Of a stretch of DNA of 39,107 bases, positions 1 to 39,107 are shown piece by piece. Origin of the DNA: a virus; the IMG/VR virus record IMGVR_UViG_3300045988_011822. One strand, given 5' to 3'. The notes under the pieces are model-generated. The model had not been told where the DNA came from, searched no databases, and saw only the letters and a program-made list of their open reading frames with translations. The stretch's first letter is position 1. Each line of letters opens with the position of its first letter. The position numbers and the translations under genes are program-made.

Positions 1-55
1 CGTCGCAGGGTTGTACACAGACCAGCACGACAAACCGCACTTCGACCCGTCGCCA
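1..55. repeat. 55-nt exact terminal overlap, identical to 39053..39107 (circular-assembly overlap)
   Basis: cgtcgcagggttgtacacagaccagcacgacaaaccgcacttcgacccgtcgcca occurs at both window ends. An ORF reads in frame across the join. Confidence 0.95.
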
Positions 56-77
56 CGGCTGCCACCGAACAGGGCAA
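1..77 (-). repeat. DGR variable repeat (VR), 5' portion on the coding strand. The VR is 39025..39052 plus 1..77, 105 bp in total.
   Basis: 95/105 identity to 38682-38786. All 10 mismatches fall where the other copy has T on the plus strand, which is A on the coding strand. Confidence 0.9.
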
Positions 78-1179
78 CTGCAACGATCGTATTGTTGAAC
101 CATAACCCATCACATTCGTATGTGGTCTCACTTCCGGATGCAACGGTCGGGATTCTTCCGATGTCGGATGCCATTTCCATTCTTGAACAGTAGCCTCCGG
201 ATGTTCCGGACGGTGTCAGTCCTGTGTTTGTGTACCCCGCACCTGTTGAGTTGTACGGAGGAACTGCTTTCACATGATACACTCCGTTGATAAGCAGCAG
301 ACCTCTCAAACGTTTCCAGTAGTTCGCAAAGAAGTTCTCGCAGTAAAATACTTTGACTGCCTGTGTGGTCGATGTATAACCGAAAAACTGTCCTTTTCCG
401 TTGAGTGTTCCGGTCTGCAAGAAATTGTCGGACTGACTGTTTCCGTTTCCAAACTTGCCTTGTGAGTTGGTGCTGCATGTAATCATCGTACACATTTCAT
501 ACATGAGGTTGATTTCAGAAAATGACTGTTTATCCCATCTGTCACCGTTCTGCTTTGCTGCGGTCGTCTCCTGCTCGTCTGTCATGGACGCTGTCGGTGT
601 GAGACCGGAGAGTGAACGCATCCTGTTGTTGACAACCGAACCCTCGTACATCGGGAAATATGTCACAGGCAGGACATTTCCGTCTGCGTCGGTGTGTGCG
701 TATGCTTTGTATGTGTCATCGTACTGCTCCTCACAGAACACAACAAAATGATAATTGTTCTGTGTCCATCTCTTGACCCAAATCAGAGGAATCTCGGACA
801 TTGCATTTCCACCGTATGATGTTTTTGTGATGTCCGATGCTCCTCCGTTCAGCTTGAGAGCATGGTTTTCATGATTCAGTTCATAGTCAACCGTTCCGTC
901 AGTTCTTACCATGACCGGACGGTTTTTCTTTACGAACCAAATATCTCCCCAGTCTCCATAATCGAACCCGCCTCCTGCGAAATTCATTCCTGCGGGTGTC
1001 ATTCCAACCGCATCATAAAGATATTTGACACGGGTTGCCGGATTGCTGTCGAGGAGGTTGATTCTCATTCCGTATCTTTTCGGTTTTGCTTTTGCGTCCT
1101 CGATAATTTTCTTTGTGTTGGAAAGAATCTCCTGCGACGTGGATTCTTTCGCCATGAATATTCTGTCACCTGCTGCCAT
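1..1179 (-). CDS. DGR target protein (variable tail-fibre/receptor-binding protein), first 393 codons. The ORF continues across the circular junction to a stop at 38993 (412 aa in total).
   Basis: ATG at 1179 overlaps the TAA of the upstream gene (TAATG). I checked all plus-strand triplets in phase 1 from nt 1 to 1179 and found no tta/cta/tca. Translation runs MAAGDRIFMAKESTSQ...VFYCENFFANYWKRL...ALFGGSRGDGSKCGLSCWSVYNPATGVYTSIVASLSCKPPVAAA*. It is absent from the ORF track because it runs off the window edge. Confidence 0.85.
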   Translation of the reverse strand, partial: MAAGDRIFMAKESTSQEILSNTKKIIEDAKAKPKRYGMRINLLDSNPATRVKYLYDAVGMTPAGMNFAGGGFDYGDWGDIWFVKKNRPVMVRTDGTVDYELNHENHALKLNGGASDITKTSYGGNAMSEIPLIWVKRWTQNNYHFVVFCEEQYDDTYKAYAHTDADGNVLPVTYFPMYEGSVVNNRMRSLSGLTPTASMTDEQETTAAKQNGDRWDKQSFSEINLMYEMCTMITCSTNSQGKFGNGNSQSDNFLQTGTLNGKGQFFGYTSTTQAVKVFYCENFFANYWKRLRGLLLINGVYHVKAVPPYNSTGAGYTNTGLTPSGTSGGYCSRMEMASDIGRIPTVASGSETTYECDGLWFNNTIVAVALFGGSRGDGSKCGLSCWSVYNPAT

Positions 1180-1565
1180 TATTCACTTGCCTCCTTTGTG
1201 ATTTCCTCAAAATACAACGTACCGTTTGAGATACCCATTCGATACTTGATTTGTGTCGCATCGTCCTCCAGTTCGACAGTCGTTGCCAGTGCTTTCATTT
1301 CTGCAAGCAACTCCGTTCCCTTTTTGACCATGTCGTCATAGTACGTTTTTGCATCTTTGTCCATTCCGGTCTTGATTTCTCTGACCTCCTCGATGTCAAA
1401 TGCGACAGGGAGGCTCATGAACTCGGTCGAACCGTTACCGATTCGGATGATTCTGTGACCGCTTGTCGTGGTTTCGAGACCCAGTTCTCCATCATCGAGA
1501 ACCCTCTTGCTCTCCGTCCACTCTGCGGTCGTTCCCTTTTTCAGAGTGATTGTTGCTGTTGCCAT
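1179..1565 (-). CDS. Tail-fibre N-terminal domain protein (HylP/Mtd-N-like)
   Basis: ITLKKGTTAEWTESKRVLDDGELGLETTTSGHRIIRIGNGSTEFMSLP parallels the remembered phage hyaluronidase/Mtd N-terminal motif (..R.sa.eW......L..GE.GfEtDT...K.GDG...f..L.). Confidence 0.6.
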   Translation of the reverse strand: MATATITLKKGTTAEWTESKRVLDDGELGLETTTSGHRIIRIGNGSTEFMSLPVAFDIEEVREIKTGMDKDAKTYYDDMVKKGTELLAEMKALATTVELEDDATQIKYRMGISNGTLYFEEITKEASE

Positions 1566-1582: not shown

Positions 1583-2434
1583 TCAAATTGTGTGTGACGT
1601 TCCTGCGATGTACTTGTCATAATCGGTCGTGAACGGTGTTCCTCCCTTGACAAGCAGGAGGTCGGTTGATTTTGGTGTTCCTCCGTCCACATTGATGTTG
1701 ATGTCCGTCTCAAGTTCTCTGATGCGTTCATAGTAGTCTTTGACTGCTGCCAGTATCGCATCAAGACCGGACTGACTGATGATGATTTTGTTTGCCTCCT
1801 CGGTCGCTGTCAGACATTTCTTTGTCTGCTCGATTGCTGCCTCCATCGCCTCGACACATTTTGCAATCGCCTTTGCGGTGTCATCCTCTCTCCGGCTCTC
1901 TTTGATTTCTCTTGCCTTTTCAGCAGCCTCTCTCAACCGCTCCTGTGCCTGTCTGACCGCCTCTGCTGCATCAATGGTGTTCTGTGTGTCCTGTGCGATT
2001 TGCAGAGCCTCTCTCGCTGCTGCAATGGTGTTCTCCAGTCTTGTATATTCTCCGGAGTGAATGATTTCCGATTCATCCCGCTGTGACGGAAAAATCTCCA
2101 TCTCAAACGTCGCACTCGTCAGCAATGCACCATTTTGATACAACTGCACCTCACACAATGCTGTTCCGTGAACCTGCAACATGCCTCTTGTGAGAGGAAT
2201 GAGAGCCTCATTTCCGGACTTTTCTCCATCGTTGTGAACGTGTGTCTTGTCCGGTTTGGTCATGTTGATAATGACCTCCACATTGTCCGGTATCTCATAC
2301 ACGACACCGTCCTCCATGAGCGTCACTCCGATGTACCGTGTTCCCATATCCATCTGTTTCGCTGCAACTGCAAAATGCTGTGTGTCTCCATACAAATCCA
2401 CTTTGATGTGTCTAATGATTTCCAATTTTCTCAC
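1583..2434 (-). CDS. Baseplate/fibre protein with a BppU-N-like domain and a central coiled coil (start may be TTG 2425)
   Basis: 283 aa. N-terminus ...DTQHFAVAAKQMDMGTRYIGVTLMEDGVVYEIPDNVEVIINMTKPD resembles BppU_N. Confidence 0.5.
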   Translation of the reverse strand: MRKLEIIRHIKVDLYGDTQHFAVAAKQMDMGTRYIGVTLMEDGVVYEIPDNVEVIINMTKPDKTHVHNDGEKSGNEALIPLTRGMLQVHGTALCEVQLYQNGALLTSATFEMEIFPSQRDESEIIHSGEYTRLENTIAAAREALQIAQDTQNTIDAAEAVRQAQERLREAAEKAREIKESRREDDTAKAIAKCVEAMEAAIEQTKKCLTATEEANKIIISQSGLDAILAAVKDYYERIRELETDININVDGGTPKSTDLLLVKGGTPFTTDYDKYIAGTSHTI

Positions 2435-2438
2435 CTCC

Positions 2439-3449
2439 TCATGACAATTCTTGCTCGGTTCTCTGAACCTCCTCGAATGACAGTCTTGTGTTTGCCAGTT
2501 CGACCTTGTTCTTTTCTTTCGTCAACGGGTATTCATAGAATTTCACAATCCTGTGGCTCTCACGGATTCCCGTTGACTTGGAGATCAGCAGCACCGTGTC
2601 TCCCAGTGCTATACTGAACACCTCTTTGTACTGTTCTTTTTTCTCCTCGTCCTGCACTGCCTCAACAAGATTGATGATTTCTGCTGTGTACGACCTGTAT
2701 GGTTTGGAAAGTTCGTCCAGTTTCGCCTCCGCATCCTCTTTCAGTGATTCCGCATCCGTGTATCTTTCATCTTTCCACGTCATCGTTTTCACTTTCTTTG
2801 AATACTGGTGATTCTCAACATAATTTTTCCCGTCGATATTCAGCATCAATCCATCTTTCCCTATCGGAATGAGCCTTGTTGCAAAGTCGTATGAGTTTGA
2901 CTGCACCTGCAACCGCTTGAGGTTCAGACGTTCAATGAAATATGCTCCTCTGTCCTCTCCGTATTTCTCATATACCGAAATTCCCTTGTTCAGAGAATCG
3001 AACACCATCTCGCATCTATACGTTGTAATTGCCTGTTGAGCGACATCCCATGCAGAACAGTTCTGCTCTATCCGGATTGTTCTCTTTTTGGAAACATCGC
3101 ACCGGATGACTTTCCATCCAGTTCCGTCGATTGCCTCTGTTAGACATTCATCGACCGTCTTTTCCACAGTCTCGAATCCCTGCGGATATTGTTTGCCCTC
3201 CAGTTCCTCGACGTTCAATGTTCCGGTGCATTTGTACCATTCCCCGCTCGGCTCGACCTGCTTGATAACAAATTCGTCCGTGTCGGTTCTGATATATCCC
3301 TCCTCTTTGATGTCCGCTGCATACCTGTTTGTCTTTCGGAACTCGAATGTGATTTCCTTATCTCCAGTCTTGAGAGTGCTTGTGATGCACGTTTCTTTTA
3401 TTCCGGATAAAATACACACCTTTTCGTGTGAATCATTGTACAAATCCAT
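2439..3449 (-). CDS. Tail-associated protein (Tal / prophage tail endopeptidase N-terminal-like)
   Basis: Follows Dit. Start at MDLYNDSHEK, preceded by AGGAGG. Confidence 0.55.
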   Translation of the reverse strand: MDLYNDSHEKVCILSGIKETCITSTLKTGDKEITFEFRKTNRYAADIKEEGYIRTDTDEFVIKQVEPSGEWYKCTGTLNVEELEGKQYPQGFETVEKTVDECLTEAIDGTGWKVIRCDVSKKRTIRIEQNCSAWDVAQQAITTYRCEMVFDSLNKGISVYEKYGEDRGAYFIERLNLKRLQVQSNSYDFATRLIPIGKDGLMLNIDGKNYVENHQYSKKVKTMTWKDERYTDAESLKEDAEAKLDELSKPYRSYTAEIINLVEAVQDEEKKEQYKEVFSIALGDTVLLISKSTGIRESHRIVKFYEYPLTKEKNKVELANTRLSFEEVQRTEQELS

Positions 3450-3460
3450 CTGACCGCCTC

Positions 3461-4168
3461 CTATAACCACATAGGTTTATACTGCAATGTGACAAGTGCG
3501 TTATTGTCAGAGAAAATGAGATGATGTTCCTTTTCCTGCCCTGTTGTGAGATACGGAAATTCCATCAATGACACATCCTTGAACTTGTTCTCTCCGTCCA
3601 TCGTTGCGAATCCTGTTTCTCCGTCAATGATGACGGTTGCTCCTCTCGGAATCGTGTCGATAATAATTTCACCGCAGGAAAGACCGTTGATTCTTAACTG
3701 CTCAATGTACTCCGTTGCTGTGATTGTCAGTCTGCACGGTGTCGCCCTGTTTCCCTGTGCCTCAAATATTGCCTCATACGCTCCCTGCCAGTTCAAACTC
3801 ACTTCGTCGCTGAACCAGTACCCCGTGAATTTGAACTCTGCTGTGTACCGTGTTTTCGTTATTGTCTTGCTCAACGAGTTCCCCGTCATATATGCCTTAA
3901 AATGGCGACTGTACCCGTCCAGTGTAAGGACAACACCTTTCTGCAACTCTGCATTGAAATCACTGACATGTTTTTGAACCTCGTCTCTGTCTTTTCCTCT
4001 GAACAGGACTGTCACTGTCAGTCCGGACAATGGTGTGTATGTTTCGGATTCCGACGGTATCAATGCCCCGTCGAACATCTCCACCGTCACCCCCGTCTGT
4101 GGAGGCTCGAAATCAACTGTCAACTGCTTTGCATCGAATGACCGAATGTCTATGCTGTCAATTTTCAT
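3461..4168 (-). CDS. Distal tail protein (Dit-like)
   Basis: 235 aa immediately after the TMP. Confidence 0.6.
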   Translation of the reverse strand: MKIDSIDIRSFDAKQLTVDFEPPQTGVTVEMFDGALIPSESETYTPLSGLTVTVLFRGKDRDEVQKHVSDFNAELQKGVVLTLDGYSRHFKAYMTGNSLSKTITKTRYTAEFKFTGYWFSDEVSLNWQGAYEAIFEAQGNRATPCRLTITATEYIEQLRINGLSCGEIIIDTIPRGATVIIDGETGFATMDGENKFKDVSLMEFPYLTTGQEKEHHLIFSDNNALVTLQYKPMWL

Positions 4169-19868: not shown

Positions 19869-21227
19869 TCATTCAGCATCCTCTTTCATGAGTGATGTTG
19901 CCATGATGCAATATCCGTCCTCAAGACCTGCAAACTCCTCAAGGATATATGTCACAAGCACTCTCACGGTGCGTCCTGTGTTCTTTCCGTCCTTGAACTC
20001 CATCATCTCAAGGATGTCGCCTTTTTTATAGTCTCTGTCATTCTTCCGGAGTTCAAATGTCTTTTCTCCGGATGCAACCTCCTCAAAAAATGTCGCTCCC
20101 AGTTTAATGTGATGCACTTTCTGACCGTTCTCCTGTGTGTCTGACGGGAGGTTGTTCATCTTCTCCTCCTCTGCCTGTTCACGGAGTTTCTTTTTTGTCT
20201 CACGGTCGATTGCATCCTGCTCCTCGTTATATCTCTGCTCCTCGGTCTTGTAAGCCTCTGCACGGTTCTTGTACTGGTCGCATGAGGTACATGTTCCGGT
20301 CTTTACGTTGCAAGTCTCGTATTCGGTGCAGGAATAGCAGATTGATGTGATTCCCTCCGGATGCGGTGTCTCATAATCGTCGCCCGCTTTCTTTTCCTCC
20401 GGAGGATTCATGCTGTTTTCTGATGACTGCTGCCCTGCTGTGTCTGAATCTGACACGGTGTCCTGCTGCCCTGCTGCATCCTGCTCCTGTTTCTGCGGTG
20501 ATTTCATGTCCTTAATTTCCGTATAGGACAATTCTCCGTTTTCCTTGTACTTTGCAAGTGCCTCCTGCTGCATCTCCGGAGACATCCCACTCAACTCATA
20601 CGCTGCGGAGAATGTGAGACGCTCGTTGTTGAGTTCCTCTCGAAACTCCGGAATCAAATTGTTGTTGACGCTCTCAATCTGTGCGATCTTGGTCTTTGAC
20701 ATCTTGAGCATTGAGGCGATGACATCACGGAGGCGACCGGACTGGAGGTCATATCCTTTGATTTTCTTTCCATCCGTTTTCATACGCTCAAGACACGCTT
20801 TGAGACGCTGTTCCTCCTCGATGACATCCTTGAGAGACTTTGTCCGGTATGCGTTTGCGATGATGATTTCCACCTGCTCCTCGTCCTCGTCCTGCGGTGT
20901 GGTCAGTTTGCAGGTCGCAATCTCAAAATCTTTATATCCCTGCTCGACAAGGTGCTTGAGTGCAAGCCACCGTCTCTCACCTGCGACGATTCTATATTCA
21001 CCCTGCTCATTCGGCTCAAATACAACCTCAAGATTCTGTTTGAGACCATACATGAGGATGTCTCCTGCCAGTTCCTCAATATCTGCCAAATCGTAGAAAT
21101 TGAGTTTGTTCCGGTACATCTTGAAAATTGAAATGTCCTTTGTCCGGAATCTCGCCCTCGGTGATTCGTCAACTCCTGCCTTACTGTTCTTGTTCAGTGC
21201 GTCCATGACGCTGAATCCTGTTGCCAT
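19869..21227 (-). CDS. ParB-like nuclease-domain protein fused to a C-terminal ASCH/DUF3850-like domain
   Basis: N-terminus ...IEELAGDILMYGLKQNLEVVFEPNEQGEYRIVAGERRWLAL (ParB/Srx fold). C-terminus HHIKLGATFFEEVASGEKTFELRKNDRDYKKGDIL (DUF3850-like). A Cys-rich segment lies in the middle. Confidence 0.7.
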   Translation of the reverse strand: MATGFSVMDALNKNSKAGVDESPRARFRTKDISIFKMYRNKLNFYDLADIEELAGDILMYGLKQNLEVVFEPNEQGEYRIVAGERRWLALKHLVEQGYKDFEIATCKLTTPQDEDEEQVEIIIANAYRTKSLKDVIEEEQRLKACLERMKTDGKKIKGYDLQSGRLRDVIASMLKMSKTKIAQIESVNNNLIPEFREELNNERLTFSAAYELSGMSPEMQQEALAKYKENGELSYTEIKDMKSPQKQEQDAAGQQDTVSDSDTAGQQSSENSMNPPEEKKAGDDYETPHPEGITSICYSCTEYETCNVKTGTCTSCDQYKNRAEAYKTEEQRYNEEQDAIDRETKKKLREQAEEEKMNNLPSDTQENGQKVHHIKLGATFFEEVASGEKTFELRKNDRDYKKGDILEMMEFKDGKNTGRTVRVLVTYILEEFAGLEDGYCIMATSLMKEDAE

Positions 21228-21921: not shown

Positions 21922-22896
21922 TCATGCGACCTCCTGCAAAATTATCTTTCTGAATATGCTCTCAAATATCGGAACTGCAATGCTGTTCCCTGCTTGGTCA
22001 TATAAAGCCTTGTAGTATTTCCCGTTTCTTTCTTGAACTGCTTTCGCCCTGTCAAAATCCTCGTCTGAATATCCCATCAATCTCCAACACTCACGCTCTG
22101 TCAAATACCGATAACGTCCATCTCCTCGGTCGATGACCTGTGCAGGTGTCCGGTCTTGCCTTGTTGTGATTGTATATGCACAATCTTTGATGACCGTCGC
22201 TCTCCGGATTCCTTTTTCTCCGATACATGCAAGGACGGACGGTTGTGTCACATCGTAGATGTCCGGAACGTCATCCTCAAGGAACTCTTGCAGGTTTCGC
22301 ATCGGTGTCCTTATGAGGTCATCGAACTCAAATTTTTCACCATTCAGAACAGAAACCGTGAACACTCTTTCTCTCGCCTGTGGCAATCCGAACTCTCTTG
22401 CATCTAAAACCGCATAATTATTCGTGTACCCCAGTTTTTCCATCTCGTCCATGTATCTGTCGAAATTCGGTCTCATGTACTTTGATTTCACATTCTTCAC
22501 GTTTTCCCATATCACATAACGAGGTCGCCATTCTCCCATATTCTCAATGATATGTATTGTCTCCCACATGAGAGAGGAACGTGTTCCGCTCCCCTCGTCT
22601 GAACCTTTCCCTCTGTTGATTCTTCCGTCTCCTGTCGCTTTCCCTTGATGTCCTGCGATGCTCATGTCTTGACAAGGCGAACCATGAATCAAAATATCCG
22701 GTTTCAGATTCCATCCGACGACCGTCTGTGTTTTATATTCTAATTCCTCACGGAACATCGAATTGTATGACCGGACTGCTTTTTCATTGATCTCCACATA
22801 GTCGATTGCTTTTGTTGGGATGTTCAAATTTCTCAAGGCACATCGAGGCGAACCAATTCCCCCGAATAATTCAAGAATCTGTATTGTATCGTTCAT
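21922..22896 (-). CDS. dcm: DNA (cytosine-5)-methyltransferase
   Basis: ELFGGIGS (motif I), GSPCQDMSIAG (motif IV), WENVKNV (motif VI), QARERVF (motif VIII) and GNSIAV (motif X). Confidence 0.9.
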   Translation of the reverse strand: MNDTIQILELFGGIGSPRCALRNLNIPTKAIDYVEINEKAVRSYNSMFREELEYKTQTVVGWNLKPDILIHGSPCQDMSIAGHQGKATGDGRINRGKGSDEGSGTRSSLMWETIHIIENMGEWRPRYVIWENVKNVKSKYMRPNFDRYMDEMEKLGYTNNYAVLDAREFGLPQARERVFTVSVLNGEKFEFDDLIRTPMRNLQEFLEDDVPDIYDVTQPSVLACIGEKGIRRATVIKDCAYTITTRQDRTPAQVIDRGDGRYRYLTERECWRLMGYSDEDFDRAKAVQERNGKYYKALYDQAGNSIAVPIFESIFRKIILQEVA

Positions 22897-27690: not shown

Positions 27691-28617
27691 TTAGGTGTAT
27701 TCCTCGTAAATCGCCCCCTCCATATCGAACGCAAGTTGACCGTCCATGTTGTCATCTTCCATCCACCACTTAAACACTTTCAGACCTGTTGACCACTTAT
27801 TACAATTCTTTAAGCCTCTTTTTTCTCGTTCAATCAGCATCTTGTCAAATGCTCTGATATATGCCTCTTTGTATTTTGGATAACGTTCAAATTCGCTCCA
27901 TCTCTTATCTCCTGCCATCGGGCAGCCGATACAACCAACCCTGCAATTTCCGCATCCGTATAGTGGATTTAGACAAATTGCATTTTTCTTTATATACCAC
28001 CACAGAAATTCATCATCCCAGTCTATCAGCGGATTTATAATGACCTTGTGCGTTCTGAAACAGTTTTCAACGGTTCTCCTCGTTTCTGCATTGTCGAGGT
28101 TCATCACAATCACCCCGCCCTTGTTCGTTGACAGAAAATTGTCGTCTTTTTCTGCCTCTTTTAATAAATCTTTTTTAGGTTTTGGGATTGTAATTGCACC
28201 TTGATTGTTTTTTCGATTATTGCTTTCTGCTTTTCTTACACCTGTGACGATTCTCTCCCCAAACTCTCCAGTGTTCTCTTTAAGGTCTGCACAGCAATAT
28301 CGCATCAAGCGTGTCGGCGGTGTGACATGCCTCACGATCAACTGCCACATGCTCTCTTTTGGATAATGAATTTCATACGGAATCCCCATCTGTTCAAACT
28401 TTCGTTTTTCTTCCCGAACAAAATAGACCGTTTCCGGTGCATCCACTGTTGTGTGATTATGACGAACTCTGAATTGCAACCCATATTTTTCTTTCGCTTG
28501 CAACGCTATGTGCTTTAGAACACTGCTGTCTTTTCCTCCGCTGTCGCAGATAATGCACTCACTTCTTTCACACATCATGTGCAATATTTCTATTGCATTT
28601 TTCTCCAGTCGTTCCAT
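27691..28617 (-). CDS. PAPS reductase-family (PP-loop ATPase) protein with a C-terminal Cys cluster
   Basis: SGGKDS PP-loop motif (IICDSGGKDSSV). C-terminal CGNCRVGCIGC. Start placed at MERLEKNAIE, preceded by GGAGGG. The upstream 48 codons of the track ORF overlap the 53-aa ORF. Confidence 0.8.
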   Translation of the reverse strand: MERLEKNAIEILHMMCERSECIICDSGGKDSSVLKHIALQAKEKYGLQFRVRHNHTTVDAPETVYFVREEKRKFEQMGIPYEIHYPKESMWQLIVRHVTPPTRLMRYCCADLKENTGEFGERIVTGVRKAESNNRKNNQGAITIPKPKKDLLKEAEKDDNFLSTNKGGVIVMNLDNAETRRTVENCFRTHKVIINPLIDWDDEFLWWYIKKNAICLNPLYGCGNCRVGCIGCPMAGDKRWSEFERYPKYKEAYIRAFDKMLIEREKRGLKNCNKWSTGLKVFKWWMEDDNMDGQLAFDMEGAIYEEYT

Positions 28618-28626
28618 CTCGCCCTC

Positions 28627-28788
28627 CTCATGCTGTTGCAACCGCTGTCTTTCCCTGCTGCTCCCACTTCTGACGTTCCTCCTGTTTTCCTGCCATATAT
28701 CCGGCAATATAGGACTTGTCAACGTCATCCATCTGTGTGAACCGCTCTGCGATGTTCTCAATCATTTCTTTTCTTTCATCCTTTGACA
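28627..28788 (-). CDS. Small hypothetical protein (53 aa, below the ORF-track cutoff)
   Basis: My translation is MSKDERKEMIENIAERFTQMDDVDKSYIAGYMAGKQEERQKWEQQGKTAVATA. It ends 7 nt before the PAPS-reductase ATG. Confidence 0.45.
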
Positions 28789-36390: not shown

Positions 36391-36705
36391 TTATTGGTCG
36401 GTCTTAATATTCAAATTCATCCCGTCCAGTCTCTTGTGATACGATTTCAATGACTGCTCAACTATGAGAACCCTGTCGTGTAAATCCTGCACCTCTGCCC
36501 GTGTCTCTTTGTAGTCACGTTTGATGTCTTTGACATCGTTGGCAATGTTCTCCAGTTTTGTCATCATGAGTGTGTTCGCTGTCGCACGTTCCTCCGTCTC
36601 CTGCTCTGCATCCTTTTTGTCATTCCGCTTTTTATTGGAAATCCCGAAAAAGATTGCAAATGCGACGGAAATCCCGCTCAACAACAATGAGAGTTCAATC
36701 ATCAC
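36391..36705 (-). CDS. Membrane-anchored coiled-coil protein (XhlA-like or lysis-associated, tentative)
   Basis: N-terminal TM segment (IELSLLLSGISVAFAIFFGI) followed by a coiled coil. It sits at the head of the lysis cassette. Confidence 0.45.
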   Translation of the reverse strand: MMIELSLLLSGISVAFAIFFGISNKKRNDKKDAEQETEERATANTLMMTKLENIANDVKDIKRDYKETRAEVQDLHDRVLIVEQSLKSYHKRLDGMNLNIKTDQ

Positions 36706-36934
36706 TCGGCTGCTCCTTTCCGAACGCTCCCACGTCGTCGGTGTCGCAGTATCGTCTCATGTGGTACTCAAGGACATCCAGTTTCCCGTCTGCCTCATTG
36801 ACCATGTTCCGGAGTTCCTCTTTGACCCCCTCCTCCACTTTTGAGCGTTCAATCATTTCTTGCTGCTTTTTCACGATTCCGGACAACTCCTCCGTTATCT
36901 CGCACAACCGTGATATTATTTCAAGCGGTGTCAT
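36695..36934 (-). CDS. Hypothetical helical protein
   Basis: 79-aa ORF, translationally coupled on both sides, between xkdX-like and the lysis genes. Confidence 0.5.
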   Translation of the reverse strand: MTPLEIISRLCEITEELSGIVKKQQEMIERSKVEEGVKEELRNMVNEADGKLDVLEYHMRRYCDTDDVGAFGKEQPSDD

Positions 36935-37083
36935 TTTGCCTCACCACCGGAATATTTTTCTCCCGTGATGTATTCATATTCCTCCGCTGAAATACTTCCT
37001 TTTGTGACACGCTCTGCGATCTGTTCCTCGGTGAGAGTGCCTTTCTTGTACATTCTTTTCAGACTTTCGACAAGCATTTTCAT
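36931..37083 (-). CDS. xkdX: XkdX-family small phage protein (50 aa, below the ORF-track cutoff)
   Basis: My translation is MKMLVESLKRMYKKGTLTEEQIAERVTKGSISAEEYEYITGEKYSGGEAK. The ...t.EeY..ITGe.Y signature is remembered from the XkdX family. The stop overlaps the next start (ATGA). Confidence 0.65.
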   Translation of the reverse strand: MKMLVESLKRMYKKGTLTEEQIAERVTKGSISAEEYEYITGEKYSGGEAK

Positions 37084-37084
37084 A

Positions 37085-37399
37085 TTAAATCAACCCCTCC
37101 TCAATCAACTGTTGTGTGTATTCGTCGATGACTGCATCTTTCTGAAACTGTGTCACGGATTCAACGATTCCTGTTGTGTTGGATGCAACAACCTCCTGCA
37201 TGAGCGTCAATCTGTCATATTCCTCCCGTGACATTTCACGCTCCTCTCGCTGCCATCCGGTGATTTTCTTTCCGTCTGCATCCTCTTTCGTTGCTTTCTT
37301 GATATTGCGTCTCTGATATACCGTTGTCGGTGACGCTGTTGTGTCGAACTCCTCCGGCTGTTCTGCCTCCGTTCCGAACACTTCTCTCCATTCTTTCAT
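37085..37399 (-). CDS. Hypothetical protein, possibly XkdW-like by position. Its 5' 164 nt overlap the RT 3' end out of frame.
   Basis: 104-aa ORF MKEWREVFGTEAEQ...QQLIEEGLI sits directly upstream of an XkdX-like gene. An alternative start, ATG 37234, lies just after the RT stop. Confidence 0.5.
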   Translation of the reverse strand: MKEWREVFGTEAEQPEEFDTTASPTTVYQRRNIKKATKEDADGKKITGWQREEREMSREEYDRLTLMQEVVASNTTGIVESVTQFQKDAVIDEYTQQLIEEGLI

Positions 37400-38534
37400 G
37401 TTTTTCTCGCTCCTTTCGCTTTGAATGTTTGCTAACTATTTTCTTTAATTTCTTAACATTCACATAAGGCTTGACCCTTTGCAGGTACATGTCGTATGTG
37501 TCTGTATTGCTCAAGTAACCCATGTATGACAGAATTGCGGTTGCATCGTACCATGTGATTTTCTCTTTCTTTGCGACACGGTTGACTTTCCGTGTGCAAC
37601 TCAACATGATGCTTTCCCGCAGAATCGTCTTGTCGTGATAGAACTGGAATCCCATGAAATCGAGTGGTCTCCCTTTTCTCTTTCCGGTCTTTTTCTCTGT
37701 GTAATCGAACCGGAACACCTGCCAGTTTCCTTTCATCTGCAAGTTGAACTTTTCTCTCAAGAATCTCTCAATCTCCTGCTGCATCCTGTGGAGTTCCTTT
37801 TTGTTCTTTCCGAACACCACCATATCATCCATATACCGGATATAATGCACCGCTTTCAACTGTTCTTTGATGAAATGGTCGAGAGGCTGCAACATGAAAT
37901 TTGACAACCACTGCGATGTGTAAAACCCTAAAGGCAACCCGACCTCGCTCCCGTCAATTATCAGTGCGAGGATGTACAACATTCTCTCGTCTCTGATTTT
38001 CTTCTTGAGCCACACTTTCAAGACATCATGGTCAACACTCTCGAAAAAGTGTCGAATATCCATCTTGAGAACATATTTGCAGTTCTTTTTGTCTCGCTGA
38101 ATCCACCTCTCGATGTACTTTTTCCCATAATGAGCACCCCTGTTCGGTACGCTCCCACACGAGAACTCATACATCCCTTTCATGAAAATGTCATAACACG
38201 CAGAGACGACAATGTGGTGAATCACCTGCTCATAATTGTATCGAGGTTTCTCAATCATTCTCACTTTTCTGCTCGTTCCCTCGTTGATGCAGACTTTCCC
38301 GTGTCTTGATGGTTTCCATGCCTTTTCCGGATGCGGTACGTCGTACCCCTCCGGTGCAGTGTTCTCAAGTTGCTCGACGACGTTCTTGACATGTCTCTGA
38401 ATGTTGGTCGGCTCTAATATCACCGCAACGTCCGGACGCTCTGTCTTGCCCTTTGCTGCTTTATGAAATTTTTGCTCAACATTGCTATGTTCTAACATAG
38501 GCTTGTACAGGTTATTGACGGATTTATTTCCCAT
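37236..38534 (-). CDS. DGR reverse transcriptase
   Basis: Motifs seen: VLKMDIRHFFESVDH, GLPLGFYTSQWLSNF (the [ILV]GxxxSQ motif typical of DGR RTs), IRYMDDMVVFG (YxDD) and LDFMGFQF. It lies about 135 nt downstream of the TR. I prefer the ATG at 38534, which is preceded by GAGGTGA; the track's GTG at 38546 sits inside that RBS. Confidence 0.9.
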   Translation of the reverse strand: MGNKSVNNLYKPMLEHSNVEQKFHKAAKGKTERPDVAVILEPTNIQRHVKNVVEQLENTAPEGYDVPHPEKAWKPSRHGKVCINEGTSRKVRMIEKPRYNYEQVIHHIVVSACYDIFMKGMYEFSCGSVPNRGAHYGKKYIERWIQRDKKNCKYVLKMDIRHFFESVDHDVLKVWLKKKIRDERMLYILALIIDGSEVGLPLGFYTSQWLSNFMLQPLDHFIKEQLKAVHYIRYMDDMVVFGKNKKELHRMQQEIERFLREKFNLQMKGNWQVFRFDYTEKKTGKRKGRPLDFMGFQFYHDKTILRESIMLSCTRKVNRVAKKEKITWYDATAILSYMGYLSNTDTYDMYLQRVKPYVNVKKLKKIVSKHSKRKEREKHERMERSVRNGGRTAGGVRHNSVTDNGISETQYQESNERGCRRKENHRMAARGA

Positions 38535-38681
38535 CTTTCTTATCACCTCAAGGTCTTTCTGATATTCTTACTCGACCCTGCCTGCATCGGTATTATTTCC
38601 ACTGGTTAGGTGTATTTCAACACCCTGCGGTGTAGGAAAAAGGTGTGCTTTTGGTTAAATGCTCCATAATTTGATAAGATT

Positions 38682-38786
38682 GGCTCGCCACGATGTTCGT
38701 GTTCACGTTCGTCGCAGGGTTGTTCACATTCCAGTACGACAAACCGCACTTCGACCCGTTGCCACGGTTGCCACCGAACAGGGCAA
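38682..38786 (-). repeat. DGR template repeat (TR)
   Basis: A 105-bp non-coding copy of the VR with 23 adenines on the coding strand, 10 of them substituted in the VR (6 A->G, 3 A->T, 1 A->C). The notional translation is Asn(AAC)-rich: ALFGGNRGNGSKCGLSYWNVNNPATNVNTNIVAS. Confidence 0.9.
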
Positions 38787-38841
38787 GGACGCACACCGAT
38801 TCCCCTGTCATGTCAAGGTCATCTTTTTTGTCATGTCGGAG

Positions 38842-38871
38842 ATTCTATCACAATTTTTTCTGTTTGTGTCG
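38842..38871 (-). promoter_or_regulatory. Candidate promoter for the TR-RT transcript
   Basis: Minus strand reads cgacac-18 nt-TGaTAGAAT (extended -10), about 55 nt upstream of the TR. The -35 is weak. Confidence 0.25.
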
Positions 38872-38923
38872 GATGTGCCTCCCGTTTCCATCATCGTGGA
38901 AAATCCTTGTCATACCGGACACC

Positions 38924-38977
38924 TCGGAGGGTAAACCCTCCGAACCTCCCTTTTTATTGCGGGGGAGTATCTCCCCC
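38924..38977 (-). other. Two GC-rich stem-loops just downstream of the target stop and VR
   Basis: 38961-38977 is GGGGGAG-tat-CTCCCCC. 38924-38943 is tCGGAGGG-taaa-CCCTCCGa. Neither is followed by a U-tract on the minus strand. Confidence 0.6.
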
Positions 38978-38992
38978 GTTCCCCCTCGCTGC

Positions 38993-39107
38993 TTACGCAG
39001 CAGCAACAGGCGGTTTACAAGAAAGGCTCGCCACGATGCTCGTGTACACGCCCGTCGCAGGGTTGTACACAGACCAGCACGACAAACCGCACTTCGACCC
39101 GTCGCCA
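38993..39107 (-). CDS. C-terminal end of the same DGR target ORF (39053..39107 duplicates 1..55; stop TAA at 38993-38995)
   Basis: The frame continues from nt 1 into 39052 as ...GVYTSIVASLSCKPPVAAA then TAA. This segment contains the 3' part of the VR. Confidence 0.85.
   Translation of the reverse strand, partial: GDGSKCGLSCWSVYNPATGVYTSIVASLSCKPPVAAA
39025..39107 (-). repeat. DGR variable repeat (VR), 3' portion plus the duplicated overlap
   Basis: Same alignment as above. The GC-rich 3' end CATCGTGGCGAGCC (coding strand) is shared with the TR and is IMH-like. Confidence 0.9.
39053..39107. repeat. Second copy of the 55-nt terminal overlap (duplicate of 1..55)
   Basis: Exact identity to nt 1-55. 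Confidence 0.95.

Follow-up and report, generated by a model that had tools for sequence, protein, structure and literature searches.

The window analyzed here, a whole stretch of 39,107 nucleotides of viral DNA, begins and ends within a single minus-strand gene. The locus raises the question of whether this gene encodes the diversified target of a DGR and, if so, how its product is carried on the phage tail.

An open reading frame across the contig junction

Positions 1-55 of the window are repeated exactly at 39053-39107, which gives a circle of 39,052 nt. Rejoining the ends and translating the minus strand bore out the original prediction of an unlisted 412-aa ORF over the circular junction. 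This ORF starts at an ATG (1179-1177), runs to nt 1 without a stop codon, and continues from 39052 to a TAA at 38995-38993; the peptides VFYCENFFANYWKRL and ECDGLWFNN are both found in its translation. It was missing from the ORF list because the list leaves out ORFs that run off an end. The features at the junction are as follows.

1..1179, minus strand: 5' part of the target gene, 1,179 nt, codons 1-393 of the 412-aa DGR target and receptor-binding protein
38993..39052, minus strand: 3' part of the target gene past the junction, codons 394-412 and the TAA
39053..39107, no strand: assembly overlap that repeats window 1-55 exactly and adds no sequence

The possibility that the contig is not circular, such that VR/TR-like repeats misled the assembler into a 55-nt repeat and the 412-aa ORF is a chimera, was weighed against the genomes of relatives. 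The contig break does fall within the VR, and public collections hold chimeras of the target with unrelated domains (P0004, P0024, P0050, and P0085), so assemblers do mis-join at the target. However, the terminal repeat corresponds to the VR and not to the TR, full-length homologues of 411-413 aa are plentiful, and 11.5-kb prophage stretches in the isolate genomes of Dorea ammoniilytica (L012) and Anaerosacchariphilus hominis (L013) are collinear over the junction at 99.2-99.4% nucleotide identity. The target ORF is likewise contiguous in L009-L013, and the homologues P0001 and P0002 are unbroken on other contigs. We therefore rejected the chimera as highly improbable. The original prediction had allowed that the ORF might be truncated; the repeat, the collinear prophages, and the unbroken homologues indicate that it is whole. 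With 959 homologues in the database at E<=1e-5, the 1,239-nt ORF is far beyond chance expectation.

The window represents a full circular gut-phage genome, that of a temperate siphovirus infecting Lachnospiraceae, in which the gene of a receptor-binding tail protein was split by an arbitrary contig start; the junction is no real end. A key host-range gene of this kind is invisible to ORF callers that treat the contig as linear, and assemblers tend to break or mis-join precisely at DGR variable repeats.

The variable repeat, its template, and the reverse transcriptase

The elements that lie at or downstream of the 3' end of the target gene are listed below.

1..77, minus strand: first 77 nt of the VR, from the TR/VR alignment; continues at 39052-39014
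39014..39052, minus strand: last 39 nt of the VR, where fixed differences from the TR follow the invariant GC-rich end CGTGGCGAGCC
38924..39013, minus strand: three stem-loops 3' of the VR, at 39013-38981 (over the stop codon), 38978-38960, and 38943-38924
38671..38786, minus strand: TR, 116 nt with 28 adenines
38547..38670, minus strand: non-coding spacer between TR and RT, by coordinates
37236..38546, minus strand: DGR RT, longest ORF 436 aa (RVT_1, E 2e-17; PHROG 1423)

The VR (77..1 joined to 39052..39014) covers residues 368-406 of 412, in keeping with its predicted place in the last ~45 residues. Over the 116 nt aligned with the TR (38786..38671) there are 14 mismatches, 13 of which fall on TR adenines (hypergeometric P = 8e-9). 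Together with the RT immediately downstream, this pattern agrees with the original assignment of the 412-aa protein as the DGR target. The 13 diversified codons are 374, 377, 380, 385, 387, 389, 390, 393, 394, 396, 397, 398, and 399. Behind them stand eight Asn, one Lys, one Tyr, two Thr, and one Ile codon in the TR, from which ~8.5e12 possible heads were computed (15^8 x 13 x 4^4). The GC-rich CGTGGCGAGCC stretch is the same in TR and VR. Codons 403-406, which follow it, are constant among the VRs of relatives yet unlike the TR, and from the sequence these fixed differences probably mark IMH versus IMH*.

Column entropy among relatives is maximal exactly at the TR-adenine codons. The VR peptides of the window, of the two prophages that are 99.2-99.4% identical to it (L012 and L013), and of L009-L011 (~90% identical) all differ, and the 90% cluster of P0001 comprises 18,398 different sequences. 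The differing VRs and the entropy at adenine codons, which come from compared sequences rather than reads, are consistent with ongoing diversification in nature.

The stem-loop region 3' of the VR has a DNA fold z of -4.7. All three stem-loops are kept in eight relatives and the middle stem shows compensatory changes, and together they are a candidate target-recognition structure. None of the three is followed by a T-run. A promoter and terminator scan of 38400-39107 returned one promoter-like site and zero terminators, no better than shuffles. By position, the spacer between TR and RT would correspond to the Sp RNA region of BPP-1.

The RT is the next gene downstream of the target, and no gene lies between the two in any relative. 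Its likely start is the ATG at 38534, preceded by a GAGGTGA Shine-Dalgarno sequence, which gives a 432-aa protein matching the gene call in L009. The translation contains YMDD as well as LGFYTSQ, which we take to be the DGR-type RT motif [I/L]GxxxSQ. No Avd homologue was found with Pfam, PHROGs, or NCBIfam among the small ORFs near the cassette (37085-37399, 36695-36934, 36391-36705, and 38617-38811). Avd, a four-helix bundle, is common among DGRs but not universal, and its absence is therefore compatible with DGR membership. The DGR here is minimal, made up of the TR, the spacer, and the RT.

Predicted fold of the head and its probable attachment to the tail

A CLec-type fold had been predicted for the 412-aa protein, and structure prediction gave the same answer. 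The AlphaFold (AF2) model has a pLDDT of 94.3 and a pTM of 0.91, and its significant PDB matches in Foldseek are DGR variable proteins only, namely TaqVP (5vf4, E 5e-12) and Mtd (1yu0-1yu4, E 1e-3 to 1e-2), with FGE and EgtB next in the ranking. These matches support a CLec fold core for the modeled protein. Its predicted layout is a disordered start, a helix at 12-29, and a globular TaqVP-like CLec body at ~35-412. Residues 35-190 of the model are beta-rich and the full chain aligns better to the single-domain TaqVP than to Mtd; as modeled, the head is nearer the TaqVP type. The protein has zero matches in Pfam and NCBIfam (including the FGE-sulfatase and DUF1566-type models) and zero among PDB sequences, and its kinship to FGE-subtype CLec proteins appears to be visible by fold only. 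It does match PHROG 5302, 'tail protein', at E 3.6e-133, with residues 3-410 on profile positions 127-547 of 548. The target family is large (PHROG 5302; 2,493 clusters), and numerous gut-phage fibre proteins in BFVD match the head model at TM 0.7-0.9. That the 412-aa protein is the DGR target, and that its head is of CLec type, we regard as almost certain.

Upstream of the target lie the following genes.

1179..1565, minus strand: 128-aa proximal fibre or adaptor gene, by its matches to Pfam Mtd_N and PHROG 38006
1583..2434, minus strand: BppU-like baseplate protein, 283 aa (PHROG 31398)
2439..3470, minus strand: Tal (Prophage_tail domain match)
3461..4168, minus strand: Dit (SPP1_Dit domain match)

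The gene order is TMP, Dit, Tal, BppU-like, 128-aa gene, and target, as expected for the receptor-binding position at the end of the tail module; Tal and Dit are distal tail genes, which puts the 128-aa/target pair at the tail tip. The 283-aa protein is probably BppU-like, since BppU_N is matched faintly by the 280-aa protein that corresponds to it in L009 and is present in the 333-aa protein at the same position in L005.

The original prediction placed a HylP/Mtd-N-like domain on the separate 128-aa gene, with a stop codon that overlaps the target ATG by 1 nt, and both parts held. Mtd_N (PF18454) matches residues 8-47 of the 128-aa protein (E 5.8e-6) at 26.6 bits, which clears the Pfam cut-off of 26.3 bits by 0.3 bits; most of its close homologues carry a precomputed PF18454 match, and Mtd_N is not found on the 412-aa protein. 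Besides 38006, PHROGs returned weak tail-fibre and hyaluronidase N-terminal matches. The domain is followed by a predicted long helix (58-93), a C-terminal beta-hairpin motif IKYRMGISNGTLYFEEI, and an acidic tail. AF2 of this protein is of low confidence (pLDDT 43, pTM 0.22, from a 22-sequence alignment whose members are all >=82% identical). The model is too poor for a fold search, and the Mtd_N/HylP resemblance therefore rests on profile matches; a PDB profile search with the 22-sequence alignment returned noise only. The 128-aa stop and the target ATG share one base (TAATG), and a Shine-Dalgarno sequence, AAAGGAGG, lies 10 nt upstream of that ATG; judged by this overlap and ribosome-binding site, the two genes are predicted to be translationally coupled. 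A 504-aa protein that does not adjoin the target (L021/L042) likewise has the hairpin motif at its C-terminus.

Is the Mtd-like architecture split across these two polypeptides, as originally proposed? The adaptor gene lies directly upstream of the target in 12/12 distinct loci with 409-428-aa targets, usually with overlapping stop and start codons. Most long targets (476-868 aa) have no adaptor upstream and carry N-terminal fibre domains of their own. Fused relatives were sought among 135 representatives with a local HMM, an N-terminus regex, and a targeted Pfam scan. The local HMM of the adaptor N-domain found no fused relative among these representatives because it was too narrow; the Pfam Mtd_N model found P0304, a DGR target that joins Mtd_N to the same core, and this fusion supports the pair in the window as a split fibre. 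Phage_tail_fib is similarly fused to the core in L036, P0255, P0261, and P0292 and is a separate gene in FP_Epona. The C-terminal hairpin motif is common to the Mtd_N-type and the Epona-type adaptors (E 2.8e-9). The synteny and the fusion speak for the proposed split, and physical contact between the two proteins is inferred from them. It is rather probable that the 128-aa and 412-aa proteins form one fibre, in which, from synteny and gene fusion, the former would physically carry the latter. Because TaqVP is monomeric and single-domain, the match to it does not imply a trimeric pyramid like that of Mtd.

One alternative keeps the 412-aa protein as the diversified head and makes the 128-aa protein an assembly factor or an independent small trimeric fibre of the fibritin kind (anchor, coiled coil, C-terminal hairpin), with the head mounted directly on the 283-aa BppU-like protein. 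The helix and hairpin layout could equally be that of a self-contained mini-fibre, in that the low-confidence model and the alignment give the adaptor an N-terminal domain, a long helix, and terminal beta-strands. The same hairpin on the non-adjacent 504-aa protein would fit this arrangement, and the motif may serve trimerisation in general and not docking. BppU_N-type proteins are, moreover, encoded just upstream of the adaptor, and in lactococcal phages such as TP901-1 proteins of this type hold the RBPs directly. Against this stand the strict co-occurrence of an adaptor immediately before every short target examined, the fusion of Mtd_N and Phage_tail_fib anchors to the same core in other phages, and the lack of an adaptor before most long targets; we consider the arrangement unlikely. 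Far less probable still is that the two ORFs are one ~540-aa Mtd-like fibre interrupted by an assembly or sequencing frameshift or read through by programmed frameshifting. The one-base overlap and fused relatives near that length (P0304, 539 aa) would suit such a fibre, but the split recurs in independent assemblies and isolate genomes at 48-99% protein identity, and the second ORF has its own Shine-Dalgarno sequence and a conserved N-terminus, MAAGDRIFMAKESTSQEIL. On reading the sequence, no slippery heptamer was seen before the 128-aa stop, and adaptors differ in length through the acidic tails at their C-termini, which a fixed fusion frame would not allow. Both the frameshift artefact and programmed frameshifting were rejected on these grounds.

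The best overall explanation, which we hold to be likely, is a two-gene receptor-binding device whose head is diversified by the downstream DGR. The 128-aa protein would form the proximal fibre, in which an N-terminal attachment domain of Mtd_N/HylP type is followed by a helical stalk and then by a beta-hairpin at the C-terminus; the distal head would be the 412-aa protein, with a short N-terminal helix and a TaqVP-like CLec body whose last ~40 residues serve as the ligand-binding variable region. The TR-RT transcript would be reverse-transcribed with misincorporation at template adenines, and the cDNA would replace the VR. The GC-rich IMH end would guide this replacement, probably together with the stem-loops 3' of the VR, whose part in it we infer. 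Altered receptor specificity would be the expected outcome, and in this way VR diversification may change host range.

More tentatively, and with less chance of being right than wrong, adaptor, head, TR, and RT could constitute a portable receptor-binding cassette with a conserved docking junction and a swappable anchor gene. The adaptor hairpin (Y-x-[ILM]-G-[IV]-x-x-G-x-[LI]-Y-x-x-E) would meet the head N-terminus (G-[DE]-[RK]-I-[YF]-[IM]-A-[KD]-[EK]-x-T), and the same head could be mounted on different baseplates by exchanging the anchor, Mtd_N in siphoviruses for Phage_tail_fib in myoviruses. If true, such a cassette and its DGR may explain why lysogens in different Lachnospiraceae genera carry a near-identical phage (99.2-99.4% nt) with a different VR in each. 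The docking junction, if real, would also offer a handle to engineer or swap receptor-binding heads in phages of hard-to-target gut Firmicutes. The gene fusions and fissions, for their part, show the hypervariable lectin head to be a module separable from the baseplate anchor.

Comparison with known systems

Mtd of Bordetella phage BPP-1 (1YU0-1YU4) is another receptor-binding protein diversified by a DGR; its CLec VR is at the C-terminus and its repertoire is ~1e13. A single Mtd chain carries beta-prism, beta-sandwich, and CLec domains, and the protein is an obligate trimer; in the window, the family of its N-terminal beta-prism (Mtd_N) occurs on the 128-aa protein. The structural match of Mtd to the head is weak (E 1e-3 to 1e-2, TM 0.26-0.30). 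The BPP-1 DGR has and requires Avd, whereas no Avd homologue was found in the window.

A member of the target family is gp17 of the Butyrivibrio phages Arawn and Idris (PHROG 5302), which is 41% identical to the window target and has an RT directly downstream and 9/9 TR/VR mismatches on A. These proteins are 523 aa long, carry an FN3-like insert after the N-terminal segment, and have no separate Mtd_N adaptor. The fused relative P0304 (L065; GCA_018396375.1, VKOM0100004305.1) is a 539-aa DGR target whose core is 44% identical over residues 36-386, with an N-terminal Mtd_N at 41.9 bits, an RT downstream, and 9/9 A-mismatches between TR and VR. It holds anchor, Ig-like spacer, and head in one polypeptide, whereas the window uses two genes and a spacer of helix and hairpin.

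TaqVP of Thermus aquaticus (5VF4) is the best structural match (probability 1.0 over ~381 columns, E 5e-12), albeit at 13% sequence identity and a modest TM of 0.44-0.47. Its FGE-subtype CLec fold bears large inserts, the VR lies at the extreme C-terminus, and the tail encoded by the IMH is invariant (Handa et al. 2019, PMC6328139). Its VR has nine variable codons versus 13 in the window, and it is monomeric and single-domain with no known fibre context (PMC6328139). Among gut phages, crAss-like phages also have TaqVP-like CLec proteins as DGR targets, namely the crAssE-Sib RBP and further tail fibre proteins (PMC11054128). The BFVD proteins of cr55_1, cr7_1, cr6_1, and cr85_1 match the window head at TM 0.70-0.74. 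Unlike the window, crAss-like phages are podovirus-like, have Bacteroidota hosts, and fuse the head to long N-terminal parts.

The two-gene layout has a precedent in the DGR of Faecalibacterium phage FP_Epona (MG711462), with AUV56474 ('tail-collar fiber protein'), AUV56475 ('BPP-1-like major tropism determinant protein'), and an RT (Cornuault et al. 2018, PMC5883640). As in the window, the stop codon of a small anchor gene overlaps the start of a 415-aa target, which is followed by TR and RT. This target is homologous to that of the window over its full length (28% identity, E 2e-33), all 13 of its TR/VR mismatches are on A, and its adaptor ends in the hairpin motif of the window adaptor. No Avd was found in FP_Epona by Cornuault et al. 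(PMC5883640). FP_Epona differs in being a myovirus with a P2-type baseplate, and its anchor is Phage_tail_fib (PF12571), not Mtd_N. The window adds a well-documented Lachnospiraceae case to the DGRs of gut phages and leaves the known picture of DGR function unchanged; with the two-gene layout already known from FP_Epona, it is an ordinary variant of a well-known design.

The junction-spanning target and its retroelement

The original prediction placed the target of a diversity-generating retroelement (DGR) on an unlisted minus-strand ORF running through the contig junction. Translation bears out the ORF: no stop interrupts the frame from 1179 to nt 1, and both peptides that had been quoted are found within the 412-aa product. 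The window's nt 1-55 are identical to its last 55 nt, so that it represents a circle of 39,052 nt plus an overlap left by assembly, and the ORF was missing from the mechanical ORF list because ORFs running off an end are not reported there. The features are as follows.

1179-1565, minus: 128-aa gene, here called the adaptor
ATG at 1179 to nt 1, then 39052 to TAA 38995-38993, minus: 412-aa target ORF (translation)
77-1 plus 39052-39014, minus: variable repeat (VR), encoding target residues 368-406
38924-39013, minus: three stem-loops directly 3' of the VR (z = -4.7)
38786-38671, minus: template repeat (TR), aligned to the VR over 116 nt
37236-38546, minus: reverse transcriptase (RT), the next gene downstream of the target, with an RVT_1 match, LGFYTSQ and YMDD

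A truncated ORF on a non-circular contig is argued against by the terminal repeat, by 11.5-kb prophage stretches in Dorea ammoniilytica Sanger_02 and Anaerosacchariphilus hominis NSJ-68 that are collinear across the junction (99.2-99.4% nucleotide identity), and by abundant uninterrupted homologues of 411-413 aa (959 homologous proteins at E ≤ 1e-5), one of which has adjoining genes matching those of the window. On the evidence of these prophages and homologues, the junction is an arbitrary cut rather than a genome end. The public proteins P0004, P0024, P0050, P0080, and P0085 carry the first 50-93% of the target, near-identical, joined to unrelated domains (AAA_31, GGDEF, REP_ORF2-G2P, RVT_1), two of which are encoded elsewhere in the same phage (23833-24612, 26515-27534); these probably reflect wrong joins made in assembly at the hypervariable VR.

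The role of the protein as DGR target, with the VR near its C-terminus, is confirmed by the TR/VR alignment, in which 13 of the 14 mismatches in 116 nt fall at TR adenines (P = 8e-9). Column entropy, taken over homologues with ≥70% identity outside the VR, is highest at codons with adenine in the TR (N374, N377, K380, Y385, N387, N389, N390, T393, N394, N396, T397, N398, and I399), and the repertoire computed from the TR codons is ∼8.5e12. Residues 403-406 are the same in every VR but not those of the TR, which is the pattern expected for the end elements IMH (VR) versus IMH* (TR). At 432-436 aa the RT is long; ∼90 residues precede RVT_1, and a basic C-terminal tail overlaps the next ORF. The DGR is minimal, consisting of target, TR, and RT: no homologue of the accessory protein Avd was detected among the window ORFs tested, including nearby ones within 36391-37399 and 38547-38992, and in the relatives examined the RT follows the target with no gene in between. 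The same lack of Avd was reported for related Faecalibacterium phages (Cornuault et al., PMC5883640).

The stem-loops are kept in eight relatives, with compensatory base changes in the middle stem, and no T-run follows any of the three. A role in target recognition is possible, by analogy with the BPP-1 hairpin. In RNAalifold, the IMH stretch GAGCCTTTCTT also pairs with AAGGGAGGTTC 70 nt downstream, a pairing that is invariant and thus untestable by covariation.

Among the listed ORFs, two short ones (62-64 aa) overlap the TR (38617-38811 and 38606-38794, both minus). The 64-aa one, 38617-38811, is the TR in the target's reading frame, with a C-terminal end matching PHROG 5302; it is a pseudo-ORF liable to be annotated as a gene. 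Downstream of P0117, a 528-aa target homologue, only a 47-aa RT remnant is present (L007 7684-7824, L008 2489-2629) and no TR is detectable; this is a decayed DGR, with a frozen receptor-binding head left behind.

Fold of the head and the probable split fibre

An AlphaFold2 model of the target, built from a 54-sequence alignment (pLDDT 94.3, pTM 0.91), starts with a floppy stretch and a helix (residues 12-29), and its compact body begins at about residue 35. Significant PDB matches are to DGR variable proteins only, with EgtB and FGE coming after. The best is the Thermus aquaticus variable protein TaqVP (5vf4; E 5e-12, TM 0.44-0.47 over ∼381 columns), a monomeric, single-domain C-type lectin (CLec) protein with large inserts (PMC6328139), followed by Mtd of phage BPP-1 (E 1e-3 to 1e-2). 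The refuting condition set beforehand, a fold without CLec character, therefore does not apply. In the model the head belongs with TaqVP and not with Mtd itself. Compared with viral models, it resembles dozens of fibre proteins from gut phages (TM 0.7-0.9), crAss-like ones among them; a TaqVP-like receptor-binding protein has already been described in a crAss-like phage (PMC11054128).

As predicted, the adaptor stop overlaps the target ATG (TAATG), with AAAGGAGG 10 nt upstream. The adaptor matches the fibre domain Mtd_N (PF18454) barely over threshold (26.6 versus 26.3 bits) and also matches N-termini of PHROG families annotated tail fibre or hyaluronidase, the latter name being carried by some homologues in their source records. 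Mtd_N-type and Epona-type adaptors have the same C-terminal hairpin motif (local hmmsearch E 2.8e-9), which is also found on one protein not adjacent to a target.

Across 65 related loci, an adaptor homologue lies directly upstream in 12/12 distinct loci with short targets (409-428 aa), which have an N-terminal motif in common. Most long targets (476-868 aa) are without one and instead bring FN3, coiled-coil, collagen, or Phage_tail_fib domains at their own N-termini. Clustering of a library at 50% identity puts the family at 2,493 clusters, in which the core nearly always makes up the last ∼380 residues of a longer fibre. In P0304 (539 aa), a strong Mtd_N (41.9 bits) is followed by an Ig-like spacer and the same core (44% identity); downstream come an RT and a TR/VR pair whose mismatches are all at adenines (9/9). 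Fusions of Phage_tail_fib (PF12571) to the core occur in L036, P0255, P0261, and P0292, whereas in the Faecalibacterium phage FP_Epona this domain occupies a separate, overlapping 183-aa gene ahead of a 415-aa target. By this gene-fusion (Rosetta-stone) argument, adaptor and target are most likely parts of one fibre, the adaptor being its baseplate-proximal anchor. The proposed split of an Mtd-like architecture over two polypeptides is supported: Mtd_N is on its own gene, and P0304 is a fused relative. The head is of TaqVP type, and assembly into one fibre is what we infer.

Family members of ∼520-530 aa are not adaptor-target fusions. The P0100/P0117 group has the N-terminal motif of the window protein (..AKESTSQEIL..), then a ∼115-residue FN3-like insert, then the core; this insert is also present in Butyrivibrio phage Arawn gp17 (L002 4590-6161), where the N-terminus ahead of it is divergent.

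Phage, hosts, and known systems

The window represents the complete genome of a temperate siphovirus, encoding an integrase, HTH repressor, Rep-like protein, ParA-like ATPase, C5 methylase, and ParB/ASCH protein; terminase, portal, ClpP-type protease, capsid, TMP, Dit, and Tal; and a BppU-like protein, adaptor, target, TR, RT, putative membrane (holin-like) protein, and endolysin. Its replication/early region includes, all on the minus strand, a ParB_N-DUF3850/ASCH fusion (19869-21227), a C5 cytosine methylase (21922-22896), and a PAPS-reductase-domain protein (27691-28761).

Its relatives occur as prophages in Lachnospiraceae and in other gut Clostridia. The same tail/DGR/lysis region, over the 11.5 kb compared, occurs in the above isolates of two Lachnospiraceae genera, and Bariatricus sp. 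and Blautia luti have ∼90% relatives; all taxonomy follows the record names. VR peptides differ among the window, the two isolates, and three loci ∼90% identical (L009-L011); a different VR in each copy hints at DGR-assisted broad host range.

The original call was correct and helps annotation. Short follow-up could be worthwhile for the anchor, fused in some phages and split in others with a common junction motif, and for a near-identical phage with different VRs in two Lachnospiraceae genera. The pair itself is a further instance of known biology, since the family has a PHROG, TaqVP-like DGR heads are described in gut phages, and FP_Epona has an equivalent pair, annotated 'BPP-1-like major tropism determinant protein' and 'tail-collar fiber protein'.
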